From: Mytilus edulis | Taxonomy: Eukaryota | Assembly: GCF_963676685.1 (NCBI RefSeq) | Contig: NC_092348.1 | Span: forward strand, 95,728,001-95,792,000 | Direction: 5' to 3' | Length of the DNA stretch: 64,000 nt | In this document: in pieces, positions 35,401 through 62,631 of the stretch | Layout: every line of letters begins with the position of its first letter | Position numbering within the stretch: position 1 is the stretch's first letter | Program-made: the position numbers and the translations under genes | The notes under the pieces: model-generated | Told to the model about the DNA's origin: nothing | What the model saw: only the letters and a program-made list of their open reading frames with translations | The model's database searches: none

Positions 35401-38400
35401 CTAGCTACATTGTTCCGGGACTTTTCAACTAGCTACTTTTTTCAGGAACTTTTTGACTGCACTCGGAATAAAACAACTAGTTGGAAAGTTCCATCGTAAC
35501 AAAATAACTAGTTGAAAAGTTCCGCCAGAACAAAGTAACTGACGGAACATAGCGGCTGTTACATGTTTACTGAGTATATATGTATAGCCCGAAAGAGTCG
35601 TATGTACAAACCTACAGCTTACTCCCTACACTGTAACAGTATCATACTTTACTTACACAAAACTATGATTTTTCCAAGAAAATTGACAATAATAATTGCA
35701 GTAACTTGACTATATCATGTTTATTATATATTCAATTTTCTAATTTTAGCTCTGGTATTAATTAAATTGTTTTAAATCGGAAAATACATTTAGGGCTAAA
35801 TATAAATTATTGATTTTTTAGGTGGAAAACATATTGGAACAGAGAGAGGTTGATGGACAACTGCAGTTTTTTGTCAAGTGGAAGAATTTCAATGAAGACT
35901 GGAATACCTGGGAACCAGTAGACAATTTGTTGGATTGTTTTAACTTAATCCTTGAATTTCAGGAAAAGCAACATGATACTGTTACTACCAAAACAAATGT
36001 TGAAAAGTCAAAACTGGCTAGAAAAGAGGCATTAAAGATTGTGAAGAAAGCCAAGAGATTGAACTCTGGTAGTGATAATATTAAGAAAGCTTTACTGAAG
36101 CATGCAGCTATTGTTAAAAATGAGGATGTTAGCCTTAACCTATCAGTGGACACAAGCGTGCTTACTTCTACCCCATTTAAGAAGTCACCTAAATCACCTA
36201 AGTCACCTAAATCACCTAAGTCACCAAAATCACCAACACAATCACCAAAATGTTCACCTAAACCCAGAAAGTTGGAAGAAGGGGTATCAACACCTATTAC
36301 TACAACTAAAAGGACTCCAAAGAAACCTTCCAAACTTGAAGAGTATTTTGATCCATCAAAAATGTTTATTAAAAGTTCTAGTAAAATATTGTCAAATGGT
36401 GTTCAGAGTTCAAAGGTTAACTCTCCAAGTGTTTTAAGAACTTTACTTACCACTAGCCTCCCTGTTCCTACGAAACAAAGTAAAATTAACAGTCCTTGTA
36501 TGCATGCTAGTGTAAAACTGAAGAAATGCACAGTGAGTTCAGTGACATTAAACAGTAGCAAAACCACAGATGCATTGCAAAGTGACAAAGAAAGTGACCA
36601 AATAACTCAGAATAAATCTGATAACTCTCAGAGTAGTACAAAAATAAAAAGAAAATACACAAAAAGATCAGATCAGGAATTACTGGGAGGAAATAAAAAG
36701 AAAACCTCTAAAGTTGGAAACAAAACTAAAAGTACAAGTTTGAAGAATAATCTTAAGAAATCGCTAGGAGGTAAAACTTTAAAAACATCAGATAAAAACT
36801 TTAAAATGAAGAAAACAGGGAATTTGTTGGTAGTTAAAATGAGACCAGCTATCAAAAAGGAAAAGAAAAGTGAATTAAGTGCTTCAAGTCAGAGCGAGTG
36901 TTCTGAAGCTGAAACAAAAGATATAACTTTACAAGATATGAATAACAGTGCTGCACAGGAAAAAGTCCACACAGAGATTCAGGCTTCTCAAGGAGAGAAG
37001 AAAATTGTGAAGAAAAAAATTATATCATTGAAAGTAAAGAAAGAAAAGTTAAACAAAGAAGGCAAAAAGAAAGAGAAAAAAATCAAAACAAAAGATCAGG
37101 CAGATGGGAAAAAAATAAAGAAACAAAATATGAATGAAGGGAAAAAAGTGAAAGTGAAAAAGAAAAACAAAGAAGATGGGAAGAAAGAAATAAAAGTAAA
37201 AGGAGTAAAGAGGAAGTTGGAAGATTGTATTGAAATCATAGACACTGAGTCTGATGATGATGTTCAAGTCAAATTTTCTTTATCTCCAAAATCTAAGAAA
37301 GCTAAAACTGACAATTCACCAAAAAGACCAGAAAATGAGAAAAAGATGGAGAGTCCTAGCAAGATAATAAAAGAAATGGGTAAAAAGACTCTGCAGGTGA
37401 AAGTTCGTCCAATGGAAACGACATCATCCAATATAAAGAAGATGAGATTAATTGATGCAGTAAAACCTCACCCTGGAGTCTCAAAATCAGGTACATGTAC
37501 AGTAAAACCTCACTCTGGTGTCTCAAAAATCAGGTACAGTAAAACCTCGCCATAGTCTCAAAATTAGGCACAATTATAAAAACTCCCTGAAGTCTCAAAA
37601 TCAGGTACAGTAAAACCTCACCCTAGAGTCTCATAATCAGGCACAGTGAAAACTCTCCCTGGAGTCTCAAAATCAGGTACAGTAAAACCTCACCCTGGAG
37701 TCTTAAAATTAGGTTCAGCAAAACCTCACTCTGGAGTCTCAAAATCAGGTACAGTAAAACCTCACCCTGAGGTCTTAAAATCAGGTACAGTAAAACCTCA
37801 CCCTGGAGTCTCAAAATCAGGCACAGTAAAACCTCATCCTGGAGTCTCAAAATCAGGTATACAACCTTTTTGTATCAAGTTGATACATACAGCTGACATA
37901 TAGATTCTGTTAAAATAAGTAAAAGATGTTTCGACAATGTTTTTCCTTATAATTAGATGTACATATCTTAGAGTCATGATAGAACTTATTAGGAGAGTCA
38001 TTTGAATGGCTTTAATATCCATGATCCTGATGATGAAACATTTCAAATTTTTATCATATTGATAACACAACTAAGGCTCATACATTTAGAGCATTCTAAA
38101 GGAATATAAAAAAAAATACAAAAAGATTTATGCTGCTTTCTTATATCTGATGCTGAATTGCACCAAGCTGTTGGAAATATTGTCATGATATTTACATCAT
38201 AGTCTAGCATTTTGTTTTTCTGTACTTTCTAAATAATTTTGTTATGCTTGCAGATATTAGCTGATCTTTAGGATTTTTGTTTTCTTTTTCTTAATATATT
38301 TTAAACTTTATTATTTTATATTTACAGCAATTGTTCGACCAGTATCACCAACTCCTGTGTTCACATCAGTCAAGCCTATAATGTCTACTACACATGCTCG

Positions 38401-41400
38401 ACCCATGGTTGCCATGGATGCACTTTGTGCAGATGTACCTGCAGGGTATCACTATGTACCCGCTATGATTCCTATCAGTCCTTCATCAATGTCATACAAA
38501 ATGTTACTTGATAGTCTCCCTTTCCAGTTTCACACGAAGAAGTCCAGCAAGAAACGAGAAGAAGAAATGGTGCGTGAAGATGATGTGGAACGGAGAATGA
38601 GTGTTAGACAAAGTGAATGTGCCTACCGATATAAAGAGATTGTTGTGAAGAAGTGTAACCGATATACACAGATCTGGTTAAATACACATTCAAAGTTAAA
38701 AAATTGTCTTAATCCTCAGGTAAATATATTTCTTTAAATTGGTATAAGAGGAGTTTGGTGGTAGATGAAGATATTTTTTATTCTTAATAGCTCTCATCAT
38801 TTCTTTCCACATACTAAATCTTTTTCTTACGGAATAGAATTTGTTAATTTTTCCCGCATTTCTGAATAAATGTCAATGTATTACATCATAATGTTGTATT
38901 AGTTATGTATTGTTGCTTTTATTTAATACCATCAATAATACATAATTTTTCATCTGTATTATATTGATGTAGACTTTGAAATTGACCGCATATGTTGCCA
39001 GCAATCTAATACGCATATGTTATATAAAAATAAGGAGATGGGATATGGTTTCCAATGAGATAACTACCCACCAAAGTTCAAATGAAGGTGATGTGAGCAG
39101 TTGTAGGCAGTCATACAGCCTTTATGTATGAATGTCTTGTTCTATGTTTTAGGTAATACAAGAAGTAGTGTCAGCTTTGAACTCAGCGAAGTATGACGAT
39201 AGTAATCTAGTCATGTTCAGTGGTCTAGGGAATGTGTTCTGCAGTGGTATCGATCTCACTTACTTGATCTCAAATTCAATGGATAGGAAAATGGCAGCAA
39301 GAAAAATGGTGGATGCTCTCAGGTAAACATAATCATAGCCACATATGAATAAAAAGGATGTGCCTCACCCTGTATTATTTGTCTCTGTTTATTGTCCTTT
39401 CACTTTACTAATTTACTTGAACGTTTAATCAAACTAAATATAAACTCATCTCTACAAACTGAGCAATTGGTAAAATATTTCATTTCATTGATTAAGTGAA
39501 AGGTAATCATTATGAAGTAGATGCAGTGAAATAAAAGGTATTCTTAATCTTAGCACATAATTTCGAAGTTTGTCTGAAGATTGTGCAGAGTTATGGTCCT
39601 TGGACTTAACTGAAGTCACTTAAATAATCAGTTTTTAACTATTCTTTCGTCATGCTTGAAGATATTGACTTGATATTTGATATATAGTTGACACCATGAC
39701 AAGTTGTAGATCAAGTTAAAATTTTGTTCCAAAACAGTGAATTTTTAACCAGTAGGGACTATGTATTGCCATGCAATACTCACAGTATGCTTGTTACTAA
39801 AATGTATTAGTTATTTGCCTAAAATTTTCTTTTAGGGATTTTATGAAAGCTCTCATCACATTTCCCAAACCTTTGATAGCTGTAGTGACGGGATCTGCTA
39901 TAGGTCTTGGGATGACCATGCTCCCGCTATGTGACATAGTCTACGCCAGCGATAAAGCTTCATTCCATTTACCATACTCGCAGCTGTCACAAACACCAGA
40001 AGGATGTGCGTCATTTCTCTTACCTACCACAGTTGGAATGGCCATGGTTAGTATTGTTTACAGTTACATACAAGAAGATACTTTATAAAAACTGAATGTT
40101 GTTACAGAAAAAATTTAACTAATAATTGGTGTTTATCAGTATTCACTGATGTTCCAATAAAATATGTACCATACTGAGAGGAGGCACTTTTAAATTGTTG
40201 CAATAATCGCTCAATCACAATTTCAAAATTTTTATTTTCTTCTGTTTGTGTTTTTTTATGAACTGCATCTTTAGAAAATATGCATGATTGATGTGTATCA
40301 AAAGTGTTTAAATTTGACGTTCTTGATATCTTGAATGTAATGCTAAAATATTCCCATTATTATAGGCTAATGAATTACTGATTGGAGGACGGAAGATCAC
40401 AGCTATTGAGGCGTGTCAACTTGGTCTGGTATCACAGGTGTTCTGGCCTACCAGTATCATGCAAGAAGTCATACCTAGAATAGAAAACATGGCCCTACAG
40501 TCAGGCAAGGTAAACAAAATATGTGCTTCTTTAGGGAGGGTCAACTGTGTAGGTGAAAACACTGTTTTTACACATGATAAGCTGAATAACAACTCATATA
40601 TAAATTTTAAAAAAATACTATGGAAAATTGCTCAAGTATGCCACCAATTTGAACTATTTTGGAATATTATAGGAAAATCAAATATAAAGTTTTTGAATTG
40701 AAAAAATACTGAAAAATGGAAATTTTTATTTTCCAGTTGCATACATTTATCTAAGCTTTTAGAATATAATAAAACCCAATTTAAGTTAAAAGAAATAGTA
40801 TTGTTTTGCTGTACATAACTACCACTTTTCTAAAAAAAAAAAAAAAGTATTTATTTTTATTGAAAAATCTTAATTTTTCATTTGTCACAATAAACAACCA
40901 TGGTTTTGAGAGTTATTTCCCCTTCCAAACATACTTCTTTAGATCAGAAAAATAATTCCTGTCTCATTTCATTGTATCAGTGTAGAAAAAGAAGAAGATT
41001 GAACATGTTATGCAATATTGACAAATCTGATGTATAAGAAAGAAATAAATGTTTGTCTTTTCAAAACAAATCAACGAGTTAAAAATCATCAATTACATTT
41101 TAAAAACACTAACCATAGAAAAAGCCACTTCAGAGCATCATTCTGGTGGCAGACTCTGTACTAAGGAGAAATCTCAATCTTTAGTACTTGATGTAATTGA
41201 TGATTTTTAAATCGTTGATTTATAGCAGATCATTGATATGGACTTATAATACAATCTTTCTTTTCAGGCTTTAGAGACAACCAAACTATTGATTCGAAGT
41301 CACCAGAGAACAAAAATAGAACTAACCAATGAATCGGAGTGTAATCTGTTATTGGAGAGATGGCCATCAACAGAATGTCAGAAGGCAATAGAGAATTATC

Positions 41401-41429
41401 TTAACAATGATAACAACTTCTGTATATGA
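32454..41429 (+). CDS. CDYL: Chromodomain Y-like protein (chromodomain, long Lys/Ser-rich linker, crotonase-like domain), 7 exons, 923 aa
   Basis: Exons 32454-32477 (MAENEVYE), 35822-37490, 38328-38719, 39153-39322, 39836-40046, 40366-40509, 41268-41429 (2772 nt), all phase-consistent. Chromodomain YEVENI...FFVKWKNF...NTWEP. CDY-family segment VRQSECAYRYKEIVVKK. Crotonase motifs FCSGIDL, FPKPLIAVV, QTPEGC. Confidence 0.9.
33570..35562. mobile_element. Transposon fragment in CDYL intron 1 with subterminal aactagt..aaaagttcc arrays, ending TGTTACA
   Basis: Higher GC than the flanks. Many direct and inverted aaagttcc/ggaacttt motifs in 34895-35550. Only one terminus is recognisable. Confidence 0.4.
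37459..37860 (+). repeat. 36-bp tandem repeat (about 11 copies) across the CDYL exon 2 / intron 2 junction
   Basis: Unit gtaaaacctcaccctggagtctcaaaatcaggtaca (VKPHPGVSKSGT). Confidence 0.92.
41068..41221. mobile_element. MITE-like inverted repeat in the last CDYL intron
   Basis: aaatcaacgagttaaaaatcatcaattacat ... atgtaattgatgatttttaaatcgttgattt. Confidence 0.65.
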
Positions 41430-43704
41430 AGATTCTTGTGTTTAGTATCATATTCAATTGTACATGTATTAAGAAGTTGTGTAACAATTTACAGAAAAGG
41501 GGAGGCCATCATCATATTGATTATATTGATGGATTATGTCCCTTCTCTTAGGAATTCAATCTGACAAAAGCTATGGAATAGCTGTCTACGATAAAAGTCC
41601 TTGTCTCATCTTTACTGCTTTCACTGCATAATGAAGTTACCATGCATTTGTCTAACATGTTCCTATAACTTCTGGAAGTTTGAGTTGACTTTTATTGTAA
41701 ATAAGAACAATGCAATGAACAATTAAGTTCTGTATTTGTACATATCATTTAACACCCTTTTTTTATCAAACAGGTTCAAATGAACTTTTCTGTATATACA
41801 TGTTTTTTTTAATTCTTATTCCAGAAAAACAAATTCCTGATCAAATTTTCTTCAATCATTTAAAGTTATTTCAATAATTATTTTCCTTCTATAATGTAAG
41901 AATTGTTCAGAAATATCTAGTCTGAAGTGAATGGCTGAAATGCTTTGATGAAGAATAAAAGCAGAGTTGTGTTTATTATAATGAGTTTTTTTGGGTTTGT
42001 GTATAGAATATAAATGATGTTTACAGTCATGAAATATTTCTTTTTATATATGAAATTGTGTTCATTACATGAACCTATAAGTTCATACAGAAGCTCATTT
42101 GTTGACCTACATTTGCATTTATAAGAATTGTTGACTTTCATATAGAATTTAAAAAAAAACTAATCTAACTCTTAAAAGATAAACCAGCTAAGATTGGAAT
42201 TGATAACAATTTAAGGCCCATGATGAATAAAGCACTACATTCCCACTAAATATTTTTCTGAAATTTCCTTTGACCTCTTAATGATTGAAATGAGATGTTT
42301 GATATATGGCAATGAGGCGGCAACACAACAATATAATGCAGCAAAAATCATATAAAGGACATATCTGTTTCTGTAAAGGAAATAAATATTTCACTGTTGA
42401 AAATATGAGATGATAAATTAAATACCTTAAAACCAAGATGTCGTAGGATTGTTTTAGCTTTATATGTTGATCATAAAATCATTTTTGTAATATTTTTGTC
42501 TCACACTTAAAAAGTAATAGACCTCCAATTCAGTATTGTATAGATAAGTGTAAATTTGTTATATTCCCCAATAATAGGGTATGGTATTTCTTTTGTCCTA
42601 TTTTTTCACACTGCCAAAATTGAATTTAAGTTATTGTTAAAAATGAAATTTGTTGTAATTAATTAACATTATTTGTTATTCTGCACTATGAATAGAAAAA
42701 GTGTTTGTAAATATAGAATGTCAAAAAAGGTAGTGATTTAAATAGGTTGACTTTAAACTGCCATTGTTTAGTATAGTAATAGTTCCTATAATTACACTAG
42801 TTACTTGTACTACACTGTGTCAGTGTATTCAGTTTTTTTAAATTTGTTTAAGTAAACTAGTCATTCTGGGCATTTTGTTTTATTTTTAATCATGTTTTGC
42901 AAACTTTCCTTTATTAGTTATCAGAGAGTTTTTCACAGCAAATTCTACACACCAAAGCACTGAACTTTTCAGGTTTCTTAAATACAAACTACCACCACCA
43001 GAAGTGTTCTTAAATTTTCCAGAATCTTGCAATAATTGCAGGTGTAAAATGAATAAAATAACTGTATGAATGAGTAGGAACAGGGTACCACAACAAAAGA
43101 TGAGATTCATGTCATTATGTGTATACTTTCATTCAAGTCATAATAAACAAAATCAGAAATTTATGCATCAGATTTTAAAATTTATTTGTCAATATTATTT
43201 TGATTTAAAGTTTAGTTATAAGACAAACAGTACCGATTCATTTTTATAGATTTTTTTCTTTGATTTGATACAATTATTAGAAATTTGTGTTTACTGTAGA
43301 CATTTTAATTTTTATTGAGATTGCCCCCACATATTTTTCAGATGTATGACATACCGGTACATTCAGTGTTGTCATCTGTAAAATAAAATGTCCTTGTTTG
43401 GTGCACTGATATCTAACTTGTTGAATAAAATGATTCTTCCGTTCTGGCTTATTATATAAGGAAAAGACTGTAGCCTATGTCATAGTAGACACATTAGCAC
43501 ATCTGACATTATTTTCCGATTCTCAGTTTATTTTTAAGATTCCTCCATAAGTGTTCATTGTAAGTATTTCACTTGTCAGTCATCTTTATTTATTGTCATA
43601 ATGTGTAGTTTTAGTTATTTATGGATCTGTGTATTGTATTTTTTCCTTATTTAATCTGTAATAAAATGGAAAACATAACTCAGTTGGTTAACTACTGTCA
43701 ATAG

Positions 43705-44100
43705 ATATAAGAAGATGTGGTATAAGTGCCAATGAGACAGCTCTCCATCCAAGCCACAATTTGTTAAAGTAAACCATTATAGGTCAAAGTTCGGTCTTTA
43801 ACACAGAGCATTTGCTCACACCAAACAGCAAGCTATAAAGGACCAAAAATGACTAATTTAAAACCATTCAAACAGGAAAACCAACGGTATAATCTATATA
43901 AAAAAACAAGAAACACTTATGAACCACATCAAAAACCACTTTCAATGAATATCAGGTTCCTGACTTAGGACATGTGCAAACAAATGCAGCTTGTTTGAAT
44001 GTTTTAATAGGTACCAACCTTCACCCTCACCTGAAACAAAAGTGTAACAGCACCACATAAAAAGACACACTATAAAATATCAATTGAAATAGCTCAATCA
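43705..44100 (+). mobile_element. SINE-like repeat copy related to 322-757
   Basis: aagaagatgtggtataagtgccaatgagacag...caggttcctgacttaggaca... aligns by eye with 322-757. Confidence 0.65.
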
Positions 44101-44695
44101 AAAGACATATAAACATAAATAATTGAACTTACACTGAACCGAATCTTATATTCTCTAAACTTGTATGACTGTCTGATATGCCAAATAATGTTTTTGTTCT
44201 GTCCAAAGGCTTTCACATGGTGTTTAAGCAGATGTCTGGTATGAATTATCCTCATTTATTATTTTAGAGACCTTCTTGCTAAATAGATATGTATATATGT
44301 ATGTTGGATGAAAGAATATGACATGTTTAACACAGCTGCCTCAGTATCTGTGAATTAACAGAGATATTTAAAGGGAATTAGCATGCAGTTGTTAATATAA
44401 ATTGCATATTAAGGACAATATTCAATATGAAGATTCCTTAACTTGTATGAAACCAACATTCTAAGCTTGGTTTTTTATGAGATAGGTCACAGTTCAAAGA
44501 AAGAAGTCACTGTATTCAGTTATTTTTTTCTGATTTTAAGCTCATGAGAAAGATGTTTCTTGTAAAAGTCACATTTATAACAGAAGAATAGATCCAACAA
44601 TTGTTGCATTGCTCCATTCTGAACCTTAAAATCTTTAATTGGTGTAAAAGAAAATAGTAGTATTGTCTTCTAGATTTCAACTAAATATTCGTAAT

Positions 44696-46535
44696 AATCC
44701 GACCGATGATTCATTGTGATGATCCGACCATTGTTTCATTGTGATGATCCGACCATTGTTTTACTGTGATGATCTGACCATTGTTTCATTGTGATGATCC
44801 GACCATTTTTTCATTGTGATGATCCGACCATTGTTTCACTGTGATGATCCGACCATTGTCTCATTGTAATGATCCGATCATTGTTTCATTTTGATGATCC
44901 ATCCATTGGTTCATTGTGATGAGCCGATCATGGTTTCATTGTGATGACCCGACCATTGTTTCATTATGACGATATAACCATTATTTCATTGTGATGATCC
45001 GACCATTGTTTCATTGTGATGATCCAATCATTGTTTCATTGTGATGATCCGATCATTGTTTCATTGTTATGATCAGATCATTGTTTCATTTTGATAATCC
45101 ATCTATTGTTTCATTGTGATGATCCATCCATTGTTTCATTGTGATGATCCATCCATTGTTTCATTGTAATGATCCAATCATTGTTTCATTGTGATGATCC
45201 GACCATTGTTTCATTGTGACGATCTAATCATTTTATTATTGTGGTGATCTGACTATTGTTTCATTGTGACAATCTAACCATTGTGTCATTGTGATGATCC
45301 GACTATTGTTTCTTTGTGGTGATCCGATCATTGTCTCGTTGTGATGATTCGACCACTGTTTCATTGTGATGATCCGATCATTGTTTCATTGTTATGATCA
45401 GATCATTGTTTCATTTTGATAATCCATCTATTGTTTCATTGTGATGATCCATCCATTGTTTCATTGTGATGATCCATCTATTGTTTCATTGTGATGATCC
45501 ATCCATTGTTTCATTGTAATGATCCTTGTAATGATCCGATCATTGTTTCATTGTGATGATCCGACCATTGTTTCATTGTGATGATCCAATCATTGTTTCA
45601 TTGTGATGATCCGATCATTGTTTCATTGTTATGATCAGATCATTGTTTCATTTTGATAATCCATCTATTGTTTCATTGTGATGATCCATCCATTGTTTCA
45701 TTGTGATTATCCGTCCATTGTTTCATTGTGATGATCCGATCATTGTCTCGTTGTGATGATTCGACCATTGTTTCATTGTGATGATCCGATCATTGTTTCA
45801 TTGTTATGATCAGATCATTGTTTCATTTTGATAATCCATCTATTGTTTCATTGTGATGATCCATCCATTGTTTCATTGTGATGATTCGATCATATTCATT
45901 GTGATGATTCGATCATATTCATTGTGATGATTCGGTCATATTCATTGTGATGATCCGATCATTGTTTCATTGTGATGATCCGACCATTGTTTCATTGTGA
46001 TGATCCGACCATTGTTTCACTGTGATGATCCGACCATTGTTTCATTGTGATGATCCGACCATTGTCTCATTGTGATTATTCTACCATTGTCTCATTGTGA
46101 TGATCCGACCATTGTCTCATTGTGATTATTCTACCATTGTCTCATTGTGATGATCCGACCATTGTCTCATTGTAATGATCCGATCATTGTATATTGTGAT
46201 GATCCATCTATTGTTTCATTCTAACCATTGTTTCATTATGATGATCCAACCATTGTTTCATTGTGACAATCTAACCATTGTTCATTGTGACGATCTAATC
46301 ATTTTATAATTGTGATGATCTGACCACTGTTTCATTGTGACAATATAACCATTGTTTCATTGTGTTGATTCAACCATTGTTTCAATGTGATGATCCGACC
46401 ATTGTCTCATTGTGACGATCTAACCATTGTTTCATTTTGACGATCTAACCATTGTTTCATTTTGACGATCTAACCATTGTTTCATTATGATGATTCAACC
46501 ATTGTTTCATTTTGATGATCTTACCACTGTCCCAT
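44696..46535. repeat. 25-bp satellite, about 70 copies
   Basis: Unit ccattgtttcattgtgatgatccga, with recurring variant blocks. Confidence 0.95.
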
Positions 46536-47036
46536 TGCGAAATAAAATGACTTTTTAAAGTTCAACAGGTCAGAGGACCAAGACTACAGCATAGACTGTG
46601 GACTTGTATAATCGTACAGCAACTTTAATCGTCTGTTTGATATATTGCCGTTTTCATTACATTGATGCAAATTAGCCGAACAGTTATATTGTACAGCTTC
46701 ATGTGTGTTGTTTGAGGACTTTTGGTCATCATTATTTATGTGTTACTTGTATGATTTCATATCTATATGTTTTGGTATTCAGGGAATTATGTGTTGAAAG
46801 CAGGTGTTTAATCTTTTCTCATTGTTTTAGATTCGGTTTGATTTAAATAATTACAGCTAAGATCTCTGTTTAGTGGAATTCTTGCATATAAGAGTATCTC
46901 GCTCTAAAATCATTTGGAAAGACAAGTCCGAACTTATAAAAAACTTTTATTGATGTAAAGTGAATATTTGAATTTTTGGTCCTCTATGCTCTCCAACTTC
47001 GTACTTTATTTGTTTTTTTACATTTTTTTATTAGAG

Positions 47037-47078
47037 CGTCAGTGATGAGTATTTTGTAGACGAAACGCGCGTCTGGCG
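47037..47078 (+). ncRNA. Degenerate minimal type-I hammerhead ribozyme within a short dispersed repeat (retrozyme or Penelope-like fragment, about 46975-47115)
   Basis: CGTCA-GTGATGA-GTAT-TTTGT-AGAC-GAAA-CGCGCG-TC-TGGCG. Stem I CGUCA/UGGCG, palindromic stem III, GUC site. The core has G for C3 and stem II has one mismatch. Confidence 0.6.
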
Positions 47079-47597
47079 AAAAAAAAAAAATCCTGGTATC
47101 TATGATGAGTTTATTTGGTATTGTATTCCAGATTAAAACTATTTCATTTTAGTTCCTGGTATCCATATATATATGAAGACAATTTCATTATTTTTGAGTT
47201 TTGTTAACCCTTTCATGTTAATAATACATGACACTTAATATTTTTACTGTAAATGCAATGCATTTGGATTTATCTCGAAGTTAAATCCATGTTTTTAAAC
47301 GACACATACAATGTAAAACAATGCCTTTATTTTTGTTTACTGTCCGTGAAAGTTTTCTTTTGACTTGGAATAATTTAAACACATTGACATACAGAAATAT
47401 ATCATCATTTTAATTACCCCAATTCAAGGTAAGTGTTATTGGCACTACATGCACTAAGCTATAGAAAACGTTTGGTTTGCTAAATCAAGTTTCGTTTTGG
47501 TGCTTGTTAGTCATATTCTGTTTGGATGTTTAATTTTGTTCCGATATTTGTTCTGACATGATATTGGTTAGTAAAAGAAACGAGTATTTTATAGTTA

Positions 47598-48180
47598 TAT
47601 CAGTAGAAGACACGTGTATTATTTAGGACAGATGTCAGTAGAAGACATATGTTTTATTCTGAACTGAAGTAGTATAATTTAGTGATAATGTTAGTAAAAG
47701 ACACATGCATGATAGTGATGAGGTGATTAGCAGAGACTATTATAACATAGTGCCGAGGTCAGTATTTAACACATACATGTATTGAAAATGCTAATGTCAG
47801 TATAATATTAAGGCACGTGTACTATGAAGTGCTGCTAAAGACATGTAATACATATTGCTGCAGTCAGTAAAAGACGCATGTATTACATAGTGTTGAGGTC
47901 AGTAGAAAACACATGTATTACATAGTGCTGAGGTCAGCAGAAAACAGATGTTTTACTTAGTGTTGATGTCAGTAGAAGACACGTGTTTTATATAGTGCTG
48001 AGGTCAATAGAAAATGGTAATACTGTTAGTAGAATGTGTTTTATTTTACATAGTGTTGTAATCAGTAGAAGATACTTGTAACTACCTAGTCCTGAGATCA
48101 GTAAAAATAACCTGTATTTGATAGTGATTTATTCAATACAATACACCGTTACTACATATTGCGAGGTCAGTGGAAGACAT
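47598..48180. repeat. Degenerate tandem repeat of about 35 bp
   Basis: Recurrent gaggtcagtagaagacacatgtattacatagtg variants. Confidence 0.7.
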
Positions 48181-48333
48181 GTCTACTAGTATAATAATTA
48201 CATGTTCTGTAAAGTATTAATTTAGAATCGGTAAGATACTATTGAGATGTTTTGTAAAGCATGCACTGAATTAATATAATATAAAAAAGAAGATGTGCAT
48301 GGTGGTTTTGACAATTTTTATGCCTTTTTCAGC

Positions 48334-51300
48334 ATGGGAAACTGTGCAAAAGCATGTGGGAAACGTACGTATACATTATACATATACGAATGCTAACGGT
48401 TTTAAGTTGATATTTTGGTTCGAGAGTCATTTTTCTAATAATAATCACCTTGAGTCAAAGCTTTAATGATAATTGAACATATGAGGAACTCTTTTTATAA
48501 AATATATGTTGGTTTTAAAGAATTCACACTGTTTTAATCTTTCATTTACTAATTGAACGATGTAAGATAAAAAGGACTTTTTTTCATTTAATTAATATTC
48601 TAGACGGGATATGCCTAAAGAAACGTCCGAAAATAAAACGTACAATGCCAAGGATTGGGACACTGAGGCCAGTTGTACAACCATCGAATGACCGACGGGT
48701 CGGTTGGAGAGAAAATCTAGTTGATGAAGATGACCGATTAGAATCAAAACTTCGACAAGGAACCCAACAGGTAATAAATTAATGTAATAGTGCGATAATA
48801 TTTCCAAAATCCGTATAGCAAAACATAAATATAAGCAAGATTCTCATTCGCCATGCATTAGCAGGCATTGCATGTATAAACCTAAAATTTTCACATTATA
48901 TCTTCAGTAATGTCTCGTTTGCATTTTCATTTGAACTCTAATTTTAGTTAAATACAGACGAAGAACTCCCACCAAGGGATATTGTGGACAACCGAAGAAA
49001 GAAGAAGAAAAAACGAAGAAAGAAAGGTAAATTGGTACTCAGAACTCAATGAACAATAAAAATTAATATTATTATTAAGTTGTTTATGGTAAATATCCGA
49101 TTTAATTTAAACAGTTAACTGTTTAAAGAACCATATGAAGACAATAATGAATTAAGACCAATAGATAAATACTTGTATATTGAATAAAATCAAATAAACC
49201 AAATCCAGGCATATGCTTTTTTGAGTCTGCATTATTGAGATAATTTCACTCCTTGCTCTGAATTTCGTAGTTACAGTAGGTTTTATATCGTTTTTCTCAC
49301 ATCTTCTTTTGAATAATAATCCAATTACTTTATTTACAGACCAAGTTTCAGATGAAAATCGACCATTAGAAATAGAGTCATCACAGGTATGTATATGCAC
49401 TCCCTTTTTATTATGGTATTTCAGTATAGTTGATGCAATGTCCTGCGGGAAACTAAATATTAAGATTTCTGTATGATGTATACTTGAAAATTGTGTCTTA
49501 TATGATATTTCGACTTAAAGTTTTATGTATTAGTGATGATTTTTGTTGAATTATAATATCTGCTAAAGATAATGCTGAACGAAAAATTTTGATAAAACTT
49601 TGCAGATTTTGAATTTGTGTAAAATTGTGAATTGAAGAACACTCTCAACCCAAATGTAAATATTCCTCGCGCCTTAGCCTCGGTTAATATTAATAAACTC
49701 TCGGGCCAAAATCCTTGTTTCAACTGACCAAAATCAATATTGAATTTAAATACTTAAAACAAATAGGTGAAAACTAAAACTACAACCATTTTCCCAACAA
49801 AGTTTTAATTCAGCAACCGTTTTCGGTTAAAAAATCTACACATTTGATGTCCGCCATGCACATATGGTATATAAATAAAATTCGTTTATATTATTAGGAT
49901 TATAATGATTGTGACAATAGACAGAACCAGAAACCAAGAATCGGTAAGTGATGATATTGGAAAATAACTGCCACTCTATCAAACTAGGCCTAGAGAGGAA
50001 TTTAAGGACATAAGGTTGTCCTCTATTGAACACACTGAATCGTACCGTATATATATGTGTGCTTTACTAAATAGTCTAAGATTGCATTGCATTTTATTCT
50101 GAAATGCTTTTATATCAAGGTTTAACTACATATAAAAAAAACTGTCAACGAATGTTAAGATAAGATGAATCCTGTCAGAGTGAGACGAACACATTACAAA
50201 AATTCTAGACAACTTAGTATATATACACTTGACCATCGGATTAGCCCGCTTTTGTCTAGCATTCTTTTACATTCGTCGCAGACAATAACTACCACACTGA
50301 GAGGACCTTCAATGATGTGCAAATATGGCTCAGTGAAATATATGTTGAAAATGATAGGTCGTGAAAGGTTTTAATCACGGTTCCGCATGTTTGAAAAGTA
50401 CCGTTATTTCAACATTGTTTTTGTATAAAAAAATGTTAGAAAAAAAATCAGTTGATTTTCTTGAATGTATTATATCTCCTTTAATCGGCTACAGATTACA
50501 GTTATCTTAAGGATGCAAACGATTCTACAACAAAAAAGCAGATCAAATAATTATTATCAGGGATATTGTTTAATTTTGTATGTTATATTCATTTAATCGA
50601 CTTATGGTCAAAACTTTTAATATATTTTAGATATTTTAGGGAAAAGACATTCAGTTTCACCTCATTACAATAAAGATAAAACCGTGACAAACTTGTTATT
50701 TCAACCAGTGGGATCAGACGTAAGTAATTTTCTCATTGGTTCCCAAAACGTTTAATAGCACAACATACTTAATGAAGAGAGAACTTGAAAGTTAAGGACT
50801 CCGAGGTTAAAGTGTGATCTACCCTTGAAAGTTAATGACTCCGAGGTTAAAGTCTGATCTACCAGATTAAAAATGGTTTAATAGCATGTATACTGTACAT
50901 CTTTAGGCATACATGTGTATAGTAGAATTTTCTAGGAAATATGTTTGAAGCATTTTATACTTCTAGATTGATGATCAGAATGTCCATCATCGGAAAAGGA
51001 AGAGAAAAAAGAAACACCAACAGAAGGAGAAAGCTGGTAATTTCAATTGTAAAATTTCTTAGTTTTTTTTGGTGCTATAATATCTAATTTTTCAATCTAA
51101 ATGGTTCAAAACATTATACCTAATTATTGCTTCTAATTTCTGTCATTTAGGCTAATATGGATATACAAATGTGCAGACACGAGCAGTTAAACGTATGGTG
51201 TAACATCCAACGCCTTCGAGCCTGCATGTTATGAGAGTACCACACTATCTTGTCGTTGAAACCCCATACAGCATCTCTTTGAGGGTGGTCTATCCCAAGG

Positions 51301-51753
51301 TTAACTTTAATTATGTCCATATTAAACATTTTTTTTTCAAGTCGCAGTCCGAATGTCTCACCCGGCTTCCCATTCGACCCACATTAAAGCTCCTATTAAA
51401 TTAATTTATTGTTTACTTCTTCTCGTCTCGAATATGCATGAAATGTTTTACATTGGACATTATGCAAACAATGAACACCTTCAAGTTTGTGGAAGTATAG
51501 ATCTCTACACTAACGACATGTCAGTTTGCGTCTGTATTCGACTTTTCGTCGACAATTTTTTTATAAGTTCAGTCTGAATATATTCAGATTATTTTTGTAC
51601 AGAATTATCTAAACCTAACATAATTCAATTCTTATACATTAAAAGCATTTCTTCTATTTAGGAGAAGAAAATCATGTAATGGTAACTATGAAGCCGACTG
51701 GTCAGTTCCTGACAGACGATACCGTTATTGGAGACCCAGACCATGAAAACTAA
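48334..51753 (+). CDS. Uncharacterised 206-aa basic, probably disordered protein encoded by 8 small exons
   Basis: Exons 48334-48364, 48604-48770, 48948-49026, 49340-49386, 49898-49943, 50631-50719, 50967-51036, 51662-51753 (621 nt). All are GT-AG, and exit phases 1,0,1,0,1,0,1 give one open frame MGNCAKACGKHGICLKKRPK...RRVGWRENLVD...RRKKKKKRRKK...RKRKRKKK...DPDHEN*. AATAAA near 51836 and 51849. An acceptor lies just before the ATG and a candidate UTR-exon donor AAG|GTAAGT is at 47428/47429. Confidence 0.75.
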
Positions 51754-53314
51754 ATACCTCAACACGTACGGAAGGATATAGATATTGCAATATTTTGTTA
51801 GCTCTGTGTTTGTTACTGTATTGCCTTTGCCAGGAAATAAAATTATATAAATAAAACATAGTGTTGGTATTCTATAATTGTGGGGTGAAGACCTTGAAAA
51901 GGCAAAAACACACATCAATATTAATCAATGATTGCATAAAAGACAGAACTTAAGATGCCAAGGGGTGAATAAGATAAAAAAAAAAAAAAAAAAAAAAACT
52001 TCATTTGTAACCGGCAAGGAATTGCATATTTAAACATACAATTCCTTGCTGTAACCATAGATGTTATGTTAATCACCATTTATTAAATGAGGTCAACGTC
52101 AGATGAACCTTTTCTGATGGACAGGATCCCATACAGTAATTCTATTGCTCATAAAATGAAATTGTTTTGAGGTCATATACCATGAGAAATAATCTCCATG
52201 GATATGAGATGTGCCAAAGTTTATACAACTGCATACCAAATATCATTGATCTACTACGAGTGACTCTCCTTAAAGTGCCTAATCACAACTTTTCAAATCA
52301 AAGTCAAATGAATGCACTATGACTGAAGGACAAGACCAAAATAATCTCCATGGTAATAAGATGTGCCAATGCTTATTCAACTCCATGCCAAATATCTTTG
52401 ATTTACCATTAGTGGTTCATGTTTAACTGAACTAATCACAAACTTTAACAAATTGTTGATGACACCTTAACACTAATCTGCAGTTTGGTATTTCATACAA
52501 CCAACTGACCATTGACCACTTTATAAGTGCTTGTTTAGAATAAGCAAAGGTGGAAATTAAAAAATAGAAAAACTGATATCAGCCAGACCACTGTTATTTT
52601 TTTTTAAACATATTTGTATGGTCTTTTGATAGATAAATACTTTTAACTACATGTATAAGAACTTAGTTTCCAACTCTTCCCCTTTTTTTTCTGTCATCAA
52701 GTTACTTTTGCTTGATTAAATACAATGTTTAAGTTTATTTAGCTTGTATCTCATAAAGGCCAGTGTGAAATTTAAACATGTATCATTTTGTCTTTTTTTT
52801 AAATATCATCATTAAATATCCTAGCTCACAAATATGAATAATGTGAAAACAACAAAGAGAGAAATCAACATCTGGTGACTTATAGACATGCACATAATCA
52901 ACAGCCTTATCTTAGAGGATGTTTAACTACAAAATGTGTATGCAAAGAAGCTAAAATGAGTTCAATATTTCATTTGTAAAATTGCAGTTTAAGCAGAATA
53001 TATAACCATCATACTTCTTCCCTTCTAAATCTAAATAATTCTGGATTCTGCTGAAAATTTGTGAAAAGATAATACAAATTTCAATTTTTGAATTTGACCA
53101 ACTGACCGTTAAATCTATAATGTAATCAACAATGAAAAAATTTATGTATGTCAAGTTGAAGATTTCAGATAAGATGGATGTTTTAACATGATTTACAATA
53201 AATATTAAATACATTTTAAATGCATATTGTATTACAGCGATACATTCTGTACACCATTGTATCTATGATGCACATAAATAAATAAAAATTCATAGATAGA
53301 AATAAGATCCATTG

Positions 53315-55567
53315 TCAGCCTATCGTTACACATGTCTCTTCCTGAACATGAATTTCCTCATTTAGTGATATATCTTGCTGAATAGCTAATTGTTCTATTT
53401 CCATTTCTGTACCGCTGTCTGTTGTAATGATTTCCCGTGGCGTCGTATCCACTCTATTTATCTGCGACTGATCTCGTGACATTTCGTTCTCTATAATCTG
53501 TAATTCCTCTGATGGTTCCATCTTTACAGGTGTACGTTCAACAGTTCCCCGATCCTTAGCAATAGCAGGATTGTCATGAGTTTGCATGTGTGTATCAAGT
53601 ATTGTCTTGCGACTGAATCCTAGTCCACAGAGGTCACATCTAAATGCTTTTAGTCCTGTATGTGTCCGCTTGTGTGTGACTAGGTTGACTTTTTGGCAGA
53701 AAGTTTTATCACAGAAATCACATTTATACGGACGTTCACCAGTGTGTATTCTAATGTGTCGGTACAAATCAGAGATTTTATTGAACTTCCTGTTACATGT
53801 ATCACATACAATTTCTCCAGTATGTACTTTCATATGAGCATTTAACCTAGCAGTATTGTTGAATCCTTTAAAGCAAACTCCACATTTGTATGGAGATTCG
53901 TCCTTGACGTGGATTTTCATGTGTCGACGTAGATTACCGCTCTCATTAAAGCCCCTAGTACAGATCGGACATTTGAAAGGTTTTTCCCCAGTATGTATTC
54001 TACAATGCATCCTGACTTCATATTTATGTGTAAAACCTTTACCACAATATCCACACTTATATTCTTTGTCATTTGTATGAGATTTTAAATGACGATGACA
54101 GTTACTTTTACTGTTATATTCTTTACCACACACATTGCACTTGTAAACAAACTTTGACTTTGTTCCTTCCTGTATTTCTGTCTCAGCTTCAACTTCCATA
54201 TGCATTTTGGCTGGAATGTCATTATCGGTGTAGACCTCGGACAGATCGGCTTGTGGAGGTTCAGGTTCCGGTTCTGGCTCCGGTAACATAGATTCATCAG
54301 CCTCCGTTGGTACATCAATAATATCTAGTTCTATAATAGAAGCTTCCTCACTTGACAGTATTAGTCCAGGTATGGCTTTATGATTTTTACGCTTCATATT
54401 GTCAGGCAGATTTTCAAAGACAGCAATTTGAGCTAATTCTGAATGAGTCCTTAAATGGGATGCCAAACTAGCTTTCTGGAAAATTTTACCACAATGTCCA
54501 CACATATAAACCTTTTCAGTAGCATGAGTTTTGATATGATTTTGCCAGTTAGGTTTATTTTTGTACAACTTCCCACATATATTACATTTATAGAAGACCA
54601 TTTGCGAACTTGCTCCAGCATTAAGTATAACAGTGCTCTGGTTTTGTGTTTTTATATTGTTTTGAATGATGGTTGTTCCATTTGGAAGTTGACGATTTTT
54701 AACAGTTCCACCTAAAATATCTCTCTTTGTAACCTGAGTAGCTACATCAAATAAACCCTGGCGTGAAAATTTTGGATAACATGTGATTTGAGTGGCCACA
54801 TCACGGTACCTGGTCTCCTTGACTACGGACACAACAGAAGGTTGCTCCTCCTCGGTAACAATAAACTTCTCGTCACTCTCAGTGGTTTGGTCTTCTTCTT
54901 CCTTTGCAGCCTCTTCATCAACCACGTATAATTGGACTGTCCCATCAGGTAAAACCTCGGATCGTACGTTCTGTAGATTTTGATACTGTATTGGCATACC
55001 TTCTATTATTATCTCTTGGTTATCTTCTTGTGAAATATCATCAACAGTTTGTACCCCAGAATTCATAAAACTTTGATCAGTTATACTCTGTATTTCAGGA
55101 ATTTGAACCAGAACAGACTGTTCTCCTGCACTTAAGCTTGAATTATCTTGAACAGAATACATATGTTCATTTTCACCATAAACAATATGCATTTCTTCAC
55201 TACCATTTTCGGACTGAATGATCTCCCCTTTAATATGAGTGTCATAATTTTCATCTGTCTTTTTTTCCTGACTATTTTTGCCTTGATCAGTAAATGTATT
55301 AGCAATATGTAATAAATGTGGCTCCCCTTCCTGAGCATTGATGAAGGTGTTAGCTATCTGCAGCATCTGTTCCCCTGCCTGGACCTCGTCTATACCATAA
55401 TCAGCAAACTGTGACTGGTCCCCTTGTCCTGTGATTTCCATCACCATTTGGCCATCCTGGGTAAAGATGTTGACCGTTCCCTGTTGAGATTCTAATGTAC
55501 TGGTATCCTCCTCCCCACCTTCCCGTAATATGTACATGGGCTGACCATCACTGTGGTCTGTCATCAT
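53315..55567 (-). CDS. C2H2 zinc-finger protein (2+7 fingers, acidic N-terminus), single coding exon, 750 aa
   Basis: Long ORF with nine CxxC...HxxxH fingers and TGEKP/TGERP linkers. Splice acceptor TTTCAG at 55574-55579 just upstream of the ATG. Confidence 0.93.
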   Translation of the reverse strand: MMTDHSDGQPMYILREGGEEDTSTLESQQGTVNIFTQDGQMVMEITGQGDQSQFADYGIDEVQAGEQMLQIANTFINAQEGEPHLLHIANTFTDQGKNSQEKKTDENYDTHIKGEIIQSENGSEEMHIVYGENEHMYSVQDNSSLSAGEQSVLVQIPEIQSITDQSFMNSGVQTVDDISQEDNQEIIIEGMPIQYQNLQNVRSEVLPDGTVQLYVVDEEAAKEEEDQTTESDEKFIVTEEEQPSVVSVVKETRYRDVATQITCYPKFSRQGLFDVATQVTKRDILGGTVKNRQLPNGTTIIQNNIKTQNQSTVILNAGASSQMVFYKCNICGKLYKNKPNWQNHIKTHATEKVYMCGHCGKIFQKASLASHLRTHSELAQIAVFENLPDNMKRKNHKAIPGLILSSEEASIIELDIIDVPTEADESMLPEPEPEPEPPQADLSEVYTDNDIPAKMHMEVEAETEIQEGTKSKFVYKCNVCGKEYNSKSNCHRHLKSHTNDKEYKCGYCGKGFTHKYEVRMHCRIHTGEKPFKCPICTRGFNESGNLRRHMKIHVKDESPYKCGVCFKGFNNTARLNAHMKVHTGEIVCDTCNRKFNKISDLYRHIRIHTGERPYKCDFCDKTFCQKVNLVTHKRTHTGLKAFRCDLCGLGFSRKTILDTHMQTHDNPAIAKDRGTVERTPVKMEPSEELQIIENEMSRDQSQINRVDTTPREIITTDSGTEMEIEQLAIQQDISLNEEIHVQEETCVTIG

Positions 55568-57437
55568 GGATCTCTGAAATCATAAACCAATTGATAAATA
55601 ATAAGACATAATTGATCATGTAAAGTTCTAACAACAAAAAACAATATCCTATCAGGCTGGATCTGTTGACCTTGGAATAGTGCTTACAGAGTACATATAA
55701 ATTTTATTATATAGAAGGATCTAGGGAGGGGGTGTTGTGGAAAAAAAGTTGTTTGATTATATATGTACATGTAGGGAATCACTGAAGCATGACTGGAATG
55801 GGGCACCTTGTGAAAATTCAAGTTTCTAAAATCCCATGATATCTGTTTCTTATTCAAATTTGTTGGATTTAGTTTTTCTTGTACAGTTACAAATATTTTT
55901 AATTTAATCAATGTTTAACTATATATTCCTGTGATATTTCTGAATGTGACATACACTTAGAACATAGATTAATTAGTCTGTTGGTTTTCAATGTGAATTG
56001 TTTACATTTTTGTTTTCTGGATTTTAATTGCTTGCTACGTACATGTATGTGGTATGGGTGTTTTTCATTGTTGAAGGTAGTTAAGTACAGTGACAAATAG
56101 TTGCTAACTTTACAAAGTCATTTGGTTTCTGGTTTATAGTTGTCTCAGGGACAAATAGGATCTGTTTGTGGTACATGTAGGGTGAGCAGCTGAGATATTG
56201 AATACCCCTTCCTATTCATATATTTTGAGTAATGTACATAATTAACCTATTATATTATATTTTGACAAATAATAGCTACAAGTATCATGCTAATGCCATT
56301 TCATGGAAAGATAAGTAGATTTGACAAATATCTGATGTATTAATGTCTGTAGTTTAAATCTATCTATTTTTTTACAAGTTTCAGATATTTATATGATTCA
56401 ATCAACAACCTTGTCCATATAAAATCATGTCATATATTTCATGCCTTTATCATCAGTCAGAGCTCAGGCTTTAATTAATAACAATATAAAAAGAAAATGT
56501 GGTATGATTGCCAATGTAGAGACAACTCTCCACAAGAGACCAAATGACACAGAAATTATCAGCTATAGGTCACCTATTATTGTCTCCGGCTTGTATTTTG
56601 ACAAAAGTGTTTACATTTTTGGACTTGTCTAAGTTTTTAAATGACAGACTGGCTCATTAAACAGGATGAAACATAGTATGTGGTTTTGTGGTCACCTATG
56701 ACAATACACTCTTCTCTGAAAATTGTCAAGGACCTGTGCATTGTTTGCAACTTAATGATCTGATTAAATAAAGAATAGTTTGAAACTTTTTCCTTACATC
56801 GAAGTTTAAGTTTTACTAATTTGATCAGAAAGGAAATGGAAAAAGTCTGTTTTTACACTCATAATTTATATTTATGATTGGCTTTCTTTAATGACTGTAT
56901 CTTACTCTTAGCATTGATCATGACATGATCGTCATAGAAAGGGACATAAGATACCAGAGGGAGAGTCAAACTCATAGATTGAAAATAAACTGACAACGCC
57001 ATCACTGGGCATCAGGTATGGCTAAAAATAAAAAGACAAATATTGATATAATAGAGTATTGAAGTTAAACAAGATTTCGACCCAAAGAAGCCATTTATAT
57101 GAACATCTGGAAATATTGAGGTTAAGCAATTATAACTTGCATAACGCTTTATATGTTTGAATGATTTTATTGTGTTGAAAAGAGAATTGTCTCATATTAT
57201 ACTTCTGCACGTGCAAAAAAAACAAAGTGAAAGTAGCTTCTTCGAGTGCAAGCGCACACTGTACCCAAGTAATCAATCTGATGCTTGAATGCCAACAATT
57301 TCAATGGCTGTAAAGCTTCCGTTTGATAATCTTTCAGAGGTTTGAACTGATAGTCAATTTCCAAGGTCACAACAATAGCACGTGGACAGAATTGTTTTCT
57401 GGCTTACGACAGAAGTCATTTGATTTAGGGAACATAC

Positions 57438-58880: not shown

Positions 58881-60273
58881 GGATATCACACAGGTTCCCG
58901 TAAAATTTTAACGTCATAAAACAAAATATCTGATGCCACAATGGAAAAGTGATTGTTGTATGACTCCAAAGTTCAAGTGGCCGGGTCAGACGGGATTAGA
59001 GATAAGGTGTATTGATTTGTCTCAAAAACATGATTTTCCATAGTGTTCATCGCTTAAACTTGCAAATTATAGATCTGAGACGTGTTAGTTTTAAATACTC
59101 AAGAAAAATACAAGTTATCTTCAAGAAATTGATTGGTACATGTATGCACATTTTTAAAGTTTTCTACCTTATGAATACATATAAAGACATCTGCCATATT
59201 GTTTTCAACAAGTGATATGTTTATAACTTACAAGACATGCTTAGCGATTTCCTGAAGATAAATTGCACTTTCATTGAGTAAACATGACATATCTTAAAAT
59301 TATATACTTTAATATTATTTTAAGTAGTATAACACCATGTTTTTGGGACAAATCAGTTTGTCCTTTGGATATAAATTTGTTCTTGTAGTCTTGGGAAATC
59401 GTGGTACTGTAATAATGAGAGTAAAAATTTTATTAGTTTGAACTCCAAACAATAGGATTGTTACTAAATTAAAAAAAAAAACGCAAACAAACAAACAGAC
59501 GTCACAAACATATAAATGAGAAAAGGACTGACAACCATAATATATCTAGCAGTCGCATAATTAGAAATTGATATACTTCACAAAGACATACTTGATATCA
59601 ACTGGACTTATGTAATTTGATATAATATTAAACGAGCATGTGGCAAGTTTACTTTTTACTGGTTAAAATAAATAATAAGAGTAAATATCAAGAGCACAGG
59701 AATTAGAAATTCTATTATAAAAATTCTGTAAATTATAAAAGTTGATTATCAGTAAACTCTATGAGAAGATCTACTGATAGTTGACTTTATTACTACAGTA
59801 TTTTATTGATGGATTTTCTGACTTCAAATGGTGAAGATATAAGCAATAAAAGGTCACTGTATGGTCTTCAACGATGAGAAAAACCTATACTATAGTGTAA
59901 CATCATTTATGTACCAAACAAAACATGAAAATCTAATATGATATATAATACAGCAACAATTTACAAAAATACATTTATGACCCAACAACTGACTTGGATC
60001 AAGACAAAGAATATGGTAGGGTTAAACATGTTTTTGAGGATTCAACCCTCCTCTAACCTAGGACATTAGTGTAACAGCACACAACATAAGAACAAACATG
60101 ACAAAATGGAAAAATCAGTTGCTCAACTCAATAGATCAATACAAAGCACAATAAAAACCTACACACATATAAAGTTTTCATCATTTTCAGTTTTATTATG
60201 CTATTGTTGCTTTGTATATTACATTTTCCCCCTTTCATTTCAGTGTAAATAGAGTTGAGTGTATAGATTCAGA

Positions 60274-62631
60274 ATGAATCAAGAAATCTTAATTGATGGG
60301 GTACCAGTCCAGATACCAGCAGGGAACTATAAAACAGAATATTTACCAGATGGAACTGTACAGATTGTTGTGTACTCCAACACTACTGTTGATACCGGAG
60401 CAGAGGGAGAGTTCAAATGGAAGGGACATTTTTGTCGTACTATAGGTATCCAAAACACAACTGTACCACACCATAACAGTTATGACTTTGCTGACAGTGG
60501 TGTTCAGACTGATTTTCCAGTAGAAGATGAGGAAGAAACTAAAGTTACGGAAGATACTAACTTGGAAGTGGAAGATGAACAAGTAGAAGAAATGATTCGT
60601 GATGAAGAAAACCAAGAAAATTTTGGAAAAGGAAAGAGAAAACGAGGACGTCCACCAACTACATTAAAACCTGTAAAACCCAGAAAGTCATTTTCCAATG
60701 CCAGTGTTATACAAAATATTCAGGATGACGAGACTGAGAAAAGTGATCAGACTGTTCATAAATGTGGATTGTGTGGCATTACTTATAAACGTAGGGCTAA
60801 CTGGCAGAATCATCTCAAAACTCATGCCAAAGAGAAAATTTATATGTGTGGTTATTGTGGAAATTTGTTTCAGAAGGTCAACTTTCTACAACATCTGAAG
60901 ACTCACAAAGATGAGCAAGATGAAGCTAACATGAGACCTATAGTAGAGACTAATCCACGTAGACCTGATCGACCATCACCACCACCGCCACCACCACCAC
61001 GGACACCAACTCAACAAACTCAACAACCAACACACACGGCCCAACCCCCACAACAAACCATTCAAGAAACAGAATCATCTGACGGAGAAAAACAGTTCAT
61101 GGTCAAAAGTCATCAAGTGACACTACCGAATCAACAAGTAGCGACATTGATAGATCTTGGTAATCTAATGGATGTCTCGGTGAACGAAGATGGTACAATT
61201 GATGGGGTCGAGACTCCTAAGACAATTACTGCAGATCCACTGGATGAGTCTGGTATAATGAATAATGACCCAGATTATAACCCCAGTGATGGAATAGATG
61301 ATACCAAGTATATATATAAGTGTAATGTGTGTGGCAAGGAGTACAACAGTAAGAGTAACTGCCATCGCCATTTGAAGACACATACCCATGCCAAAGTTTA
61401 CAAGTGTAACGATTGTGACAAGACATACATGCATCGTTATGAACTTAAGATGCACAGGCGTATTCATACTGGTAAACATTTACATTACATATATTTATTC
61501 AAACTTGCCACTTTTTTCACATAGAAAAAATAAATAAATGAATGAATCTTTAGAAACAAAATTTGACAAGAAATGATCTACATTAAAAACAAACTTGTGG
61601 TATAATTGCCAATGAGACAACTCTCCACAGTAGACCAAATGACACAGAAAGAATCAACTATAGGTCACCTTAAGGCTTCAACAATGAGAAAATTTCATAC
61701 CACATAGTCAGCCATAAAAGGATCTGAAATGGCAAAAGTAAAACAACTAAAAACAAGAAAACTAACATGTATTTGGATATCATGTATGTTATAACTATTC
61801 AGCTATTAAGTACAAAATGTATTAAAATCACTATTTGCTAAGGTGGAGTTCATTCACAGTTGTAGTTTTCTAAGTGTTTAGAAAAAAATGTTTTTATTCT
61901 TAACTAGAAGTATTACTGTTCTTTTTACATTGTACATGTACATACTGATATAATTTCTATACATTTAAGGTGAGAAACCCTACAAGTGTCCCATCTGTAC
62001 GAGAGCTTTCAATGAGAGTGGTAATCTAAGACGGCACATGAAGATCCATGCCGGTGATGACACACCATATAAATGTGGCGTCTGTTTCAAAGGATTTAGT
62101 GATATGTATCGTCTTCATGTCCATCTGAAAGTTCACAGTGGTAAAATTGTATGTGATACGTGTGGTAAATCATTCACTAAGATATCAGACTTGTATCGAC
62201 ACATACGAATCCATACTGGGGATAAACCATACAAATGTGATGTATGTAAGAAGGCGTTCGCTCAGAAGGTAAACTTACAGACACATTATCGCACACATAC
62301 AGGGAAAACCCCTTATCGTTGTGATATTTGTAATTTTGGTTTTAGTCGTAAACAAATATTAGACAATCACATGAGAGGCCATGAGGAGGAGGAGTTAGAA
62401 GATCTAAAAAAACAACAGGAAGAAAACATGGAAAAAGAAAGTTCAAACATTGACCAGGATGTTGAAATTCATGTACAGAATGTGATGGATGCTGCGGCTG
62501 AAAATGAGGAAGGGTTAATAGAGGTACCTGAAGACGCACAGGAAGTAGAGACAGGACTGTCACAGGAAGAACTCGCCCAACTGGTGGCTGCATCTGTAGT
62601 AGAACATGTAGAAGTAGAACCAACAGCATAA
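60274..62631 (+). CDS. C2H2 zinc-finger protein (AT-hook-like motif, 2+7 fingers), 2 coding exons, 619 aa; paralog of the 53315-55567 gene
   Basis: Exons 60274-61471 and 61970-62631 joined by a phase-1 intron in HTG|EKP. KRKRGRPP motif. Fingers are near-identical to the neighbour (CNVCGKEYNSKSNCHRHLK, FNESGNLRRHMKIH, KISDLYRHIRIH). Acceptor at 60242-60243. Confidence 0.92.

Follow-up and report, generated by a model that had tools for sequence, protein, structure and literature searches.

The question raised by this locus, which lies within a 64,000-nt stretch of Mytilus edulis DNA (the window), is whether a set of small exons encodes a real protein and, if so, whether that protein could be a lipid-anchored docking partner of PP1. 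Eight coding exons of 31-167 nt were found where the original prediction implied them, joined through introns that are GT-AG in 7/7 cases, and their 621 nt read in frame into 206 residues followed by a stop. The GC content of the coding exons is 0.40, versus 0.30 for the introns; the context of ATG 48334 is strong (A at -3, G at +4), and the spliced contigs from runs X1, X4 and X6 have their 3′ ends at 51835-51836. The count of eight holds for the coding exons but not for the gene as a whole, which has at least nine exons, the upstream 5′ exons having been missed. Nor is the gene hidden, as had been thought, since it is already annotated in four Mytilus species: the M. edulis RefSeq proteins XP_071176166/7, labelled 'uncharacterized', are identical, letter for letter, to the 206-residue translation. 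In other RefSeq models the start lies upstream of Gly2 (224 and 209 aa) or downstream of it (180 aa). The gene is single-copy in the M. edulis genome; a weak match on C4 (E 0.7, 23 bits) spans a basic tract and belongs to an unrelated larger gene. An Rfam scan of 40000-56000 gave no matches, and none of five identifiers searched is mentioned in the main texts covered, although supplementary tables of mussel transcriptome and proteome papers could list the gene.

Table 1. Positions in the window of the exons of the gene and of the neighbouring genes.
Feature	Position	Strand	Content and evidence
Chromodomain and enoyl-CoA-hydratase-like gene	35822-41429	+	upstream neighbour
Exon 0a	47358..47428	+	non-coding; donor AAG/GTAAGT joined to 48333; joint in X4 and X9, piece in X4
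Exon 0b	47472..47757	+	joints and pieces in X1 and X6; overlaps degenerate edge of a minisatellite
Coding exon 1	48333..48364	+	acceptor-spliced; ATG 48334; Gly2, Cys4, Cys8; RNA joints
Coding exon 2	48604..48770	+	Cys14, basic patch, RRVGW (aa 41-45), acidic stretch
Coding exon 3	48948..49026	+	first basic tract (aa 82-92)
Coding exon 4	49340..49386	+	splice frame and RNA joints
Coding exon 5	49898..49943	+	splice frame and RNA joints
Coding exon 6	50631..50719	+	tandem 9-nt acceptor copy at start; second acceptor 50640
Coding exon 7	50967..51036	+	second basic tract (aa 162-169)
Coding exon 8 and 3′ UTR	51662..51855	+	stop 51751-51753, coding to 51753; AATAAA at 51836 and 51850
C2H2 zinc-finger gene	53315-55579	-	convergent neighbour
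C2H2 zinc-finger gene	60259-62631	+	similar to, and divergent pair with, the gene at 53315-55579

Splicing across these exons was the first thing that the prediction put at risk, and single contigs from each of X1, X4, X6 and X9 hold all seven coding junctions. These runs come from four studies and make up 4/5 of the contig runs taken to be RNA by guess, the GT..AG joints being what marks their contigs as spliced transcripts. At least six of the seven appear among the joints listed for run X2. Raw RNA reads of X24 cross at least one junction (2 reads, 1 start), no junction appears among the matches listed for the raw RNA reads of X21, and X18, a DNA-like run with even intron coverage, contains none of the junctions. 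A processed retrocopy as the origin of the spliced contigs is unlikely, given the single locus and the lack of joints in X18. None of the 12 indels listed, out of 41, falls in a coding exon. We regard it as virtually certain that this is a real, transcribed gene.

Several smaller features of the region were recorded. The 9-nt tandem copy at 50622-50639 provides the acceptors 50631 and 50640, and use of the latter removes three residues, as in isoform X2 of M. galloprovincialis. Two neighbouring bases, 50681-50682, make residue 141 of the window Thr; it is His in every covering run and in the other proteins. Short dispersed repeats near 44.0, 47.0, 51.4 and 52.2 kb attract many unrelated reads. 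An opposite-strand joint at 52535/52881, in the 3′ region of the zinc-finger gene, is present in four runs and suggests a small inversion of 52535-52881 relative to the window. The upstream neighbour is presumably a CDYL-like gene.

Acceptor 48333 of the ATG exon is fed by either of two upstream exons, with opposite predicted consequences for the N-terminus. Exon 0a, whose donor scores 8/8 and whose 5′ limit is set only by a contig end, contains no ATG in the part seen; the first ATG is therefore 48334, and this leader, as seen, leaves Gly2 at the N-terminus. Exon 0b contains eight upstream ATGs; ATG 47705 is the in-frame one and would add 18 residues, masking Gly2 behind them; the resulting 224-residue form is identical to the M. 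edulis RefSeq protein XP_071176165. The context of this ATG is weak (C at -3, C at +4), the seven others surround it, and the 18 added residues look like the repeat unit of a nearby minisatellite of about 35 nt. Minisatellites occupy 46000-46520 (25 nt x 21) and 47837-48014 (35 nt x 5) upstream of the coding region. An origin of the 5′ exons in dispersed repeats was rejected, each exon having a single match. At 47723, a G-to-A allele in X18 converts an in-frame GTG of exon 0b into a further in-frame upstream ATG. An allele at 48615 is common to X4 and X9 and absent from X1 and X6, the same split as that between exons 0a and 0b, so that, on two runs against two, the choice of exon may follow strain or allele rather than tissue. 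As contigs cannot show true starts, the two exons may have separate promoters or may be a single exon with two donors.

Orthologs were identified in three further Mytilus species, LOC143077952 (M. galloprovincialis), LOC127700892 (M. californianus) and LOC134722267 (M. trossulus), all 'uncharacterized' in RefSeq. The M. trossulus model ends at 109 aa, exon 4 being read into intron 4, which points either to a mistake in annotation or assembly or to a genuine truncation. A search with exon 2 returned three clusters, every one from Mytilus, and a profile built from three sequences recovered only the three Mytilus proteins among 2400 candidates and one match among 1.84 billion representatives. Nothing came near the cut-off in Pfam (best E 0.39) or the PDB (best E 0.57), in keeping with the initial failure to recognise a family, and none of 77 pattern matches in a metagenome scan was confirmed; the whole protein and residues 1-70 gave no usable match in the ESM Atlas, a result that bears on neither novelty nor absence. 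The description of the gene as an orphan consequently stands at the level of the genus: it appears restricted to Mytilus as far as these searches reach, which is a qualified statement for a short disordered protein, a kind that can lose detectable homology and escape detection.

With orthologs this close (83-99% identity), conservation says little for any one motif. Its distribution is uneven, with 60/63 residues identical between M. edulis and M. californianus in positions 1-63 and 112/143 in the remainder (Fisher p 0.002, for a boundary chosen post hoc). The putative anchor and RVxW both fall within this most conserved part. Coding exon 2 is identical at 50/55 residues, coding exon 3 is the least conserved (16/26), and the M. 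californianus model begins at Gly2.

All the motifs first named, that is Gly2, Cys4/8/14, VxP, RRVGW and two basic tracts, are present in the protein. A Gly2 combined with a Cys within residues 3-10 occurs in 0.8% of shuffles. Lys6 fails the PROSITE-type myristoylation pattern. RNF11 is described in PMC7697665 as myristoylated on Gly2 and palmitoylated on Cys4, and the Gly2/Cys4/Lys6/x7 spacing of the mussel protein matches the RNF11 positions in Table 1 of that source. The mussel protein differs in having no RING domain or other homology, the signal alone being in common. Acylation of the N-terminus, with myristate on Gly2 and palmitate on a nearby Cys, is plausible, and we consider it probable for the 206-residue form.

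The standard PP1 RVxF consensus, [KR][KR][VI]{FIMYDP}[FW] as given in PMC12723162, fits RRVGW, as first proposed, and a fit occurs in 1.25% of shuffles. RRVGW contains the only Trp of the protein, and it is invariant in four close Mytilus species. A stricter form quoted in PMC4794898 needs one of [CHKNQRST] before the aromatic residue, and RRVGW fails such forms, Gly occupying that place. The loose (Wakula) form is found, according to the same paper, in about 25% of proteins, and it appears in 12% of shuffles of the mussel protein. An accessory hydrophobic pair is expected 6-8 residues downstream of RVxF (PMC12723162); here it is absent, with Leu49-Val50 lying only 4-5 past Trp45 and positions +6 to +8 being acidic, and no SILK motif ([GS]IL[KR]) is found in the protein. 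The motif lies in predicted disorder (pLDDT <50 at aa 43-46, from a shallow alignment). The 16 invariant residues around it do not form an unusually long run (p 0.06 over aa 1-108, 0.43 within aa 1-63). Each of the two motifs, the N-terminal Gly/Cys and RRVGW, has by itself a chance rate of about 1% in shuffles, a figure to be read with the fact that several motifs were scanned after the fact. Compared with RVxF-type PP1 regulatory subunits, the protein is likewise a predicted disordered chain carrying [KR][KR][VI]x[FW]; it differs in showing no sequence homology to them, in the Gly at x and in having no accessory motif, and docking is a prediction. That the protein binds PP1 is a real possibility, which we rate slightly below even. 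PP1-type loci lie at C6:77.66 Mb, C3:24.73 Mb and C9:29.60 Mb in the M. edulis genome, two of them near canonical PP1 and the third divergent (61-76% in matched exons), and an intronless PP1 sequence matches the exons of the mussel C6 PP1 across the catalytic domain.

Our preferred reading, held tentatively, is an acylated, membrane-tethered, disordered adaptor that would target PP1. The protein is basic (pI 9.7), with alternating basic and acidic blocks, and is predicted to be disordered (FoldIndex -0.28; pLDDT 52 and pTM 0.17, for an alignment of only 3 rows). Its two basic tracts, of 8-11 residues, exceed chance, a K/R run of 8 or more occurring in 0.1% of shuffles, and they remain basic in M. 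californianus; lipid binding and nuclear import would fit such long tracts equally.

The proposal that exons 3 and 7 are duplicates is not supported, as the protein similarity has p 0.046 when residues are free and 0.49 with K/R fixed, the DNA similarity has p 0.15, and the two exons have nothing in common beyond their basic tracts. A wider comparison of modules gave p 0.03 in M. edulis and 0.49 in M. californianus. Across 48365-51661 the intron phases strictly alternate (1,0,1,0,1,0,1), a pattern noticed post hoc that would arise by chance at about 0.003 and that could be a faint trace of an old two-exon repeat; in a test of such a repeat the DNA split ranked 2/35, and the protein gave no support.

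Among the alternatives, the best placed, while unlikely, is a shuttle between membrane and nucleus controlled by acylation, in which loss of palmitate or the 18-residue extension would free the protein, PP1 docking would be optional, and the K/R tracts would be nuclear or nucleolar signals. Precedents exist in cystin, whose unanchored form goes nuclear and whose G2A mutant accumulates in the nucleus (PMC3859662), and in a calpain of Plasmodium falciparum, whose nucleolar location is set by acylation according to PMC2746569. The shuttle would also give a use to the basic tracts, which are beyond chance and kept basic in M. californianus, and to a pair of 5′ exons that would act on Gly2 in opposite ways. 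Against this, ATG 47705 is poor in context and only one of eight, the extension it would add looks like a minisatellite unit and is missing from the M. californianus model, and the exon choice tracks an allele and may thus be a strain difference. Cystin (Cys1) is similarly small, with an N-terminal glycine anchor and two predicted nuclear signals, but no homology to it was found and the VxP of the mussel protein is at the level of chance.

MARCKS and GAP43 are acylated, unfolded, polybasic membrane tethers, and the disorder, pI, alternating charge blocks and N-terminal Gly/Cys described above would suit a protein of this kind, which would gather acidic lipids or calmodulin at the membrane and for which RRVGW would be incidental, as its failure of the strict RVxF tests might suggest. 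The effector domain of MARCKS carries aromatic residues and kinase serines. The basic tracts of the mussel protein are without either, and the first of them falls in coding exon 3, the least conserved, whereas coding exon 2, which carries RVxW, is identical at 50/55 residues; we regard a tether of this type as improbable, somewhat more so than the shuttle.

Of similar standing is the view that the motifs arose by coincidence or serve only in part, and that the gene encodes a rapidly evolving protein restricted to certain tissues, perhaps one that has diverged from an older family, with a role unrelated to lipid anchoring or PP1. Such a view would suit the failure of the Pfam, PDB and profile searches to return a family or fold, as well as the eight-exon coding structure, which suggests an old gene, and the raw reads of two RNA runs, which scarcely cover the gene and hint at restricted expression. 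It has to contend with the placement of both motifs, each rare by chance, in the best-conserved 63 N-terminal residues. A ciliary role is very doubtful, as the VxP taken for a ciliary signal occurs in its plain form in 55% of shuffles, and neither [RK]VxP nor [KR]xVxP is found.

Under the preferred adaptor reading, transcripts with exon 0a would begin translation at ATG 48334 and expose Gly2, on which myristate would be placed, followed by palmitate on Cys4/8/14. The acyl groups, together with the basic patch at aa 16-27, would keep the protein on acidic membrane, where Val43 and Trp45 would occupy the RVxF groove of PP1 and so hold the phosphatase at the membrane through RRVGW, and the long K/R tracts would bind acidic lipids or importins. 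The exon 0b leader would reduce translation through its upstream ATGs and may yield a longer, unanchored form. The protein would then function as RVxF-type PP1 regulators do, while held by an RNF11-type anchor, membership in either class being a prediction. The fullest version of this scheme, which we consider a long shot, is a PP1-targeting subunit peculiar to mussels, with the choice of 5′ exon switching its address, exon 0a giving lipid-anchored PP1 and exon 0b, in part minisatellite, blocking myristoylation and sending PP1 to the nucleus.

The predicted parts are all of known signal kinds, and both motif-based PP1 regulators and acylation-controlled shuttles are already known. The single feature that is both new and testable lies in the two 5′ exons, which would expose or mask Gly2 and make it easy to ask whether a leader derived from a repeat is able to turn off a lipid anchor. 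If the adaptor reading is right, it would give a function to an uncharacterized, genus-restricted mussel gene and would present a lineage that has assembled a PP1-targeting subunit of its own out of nothing but short motifs.
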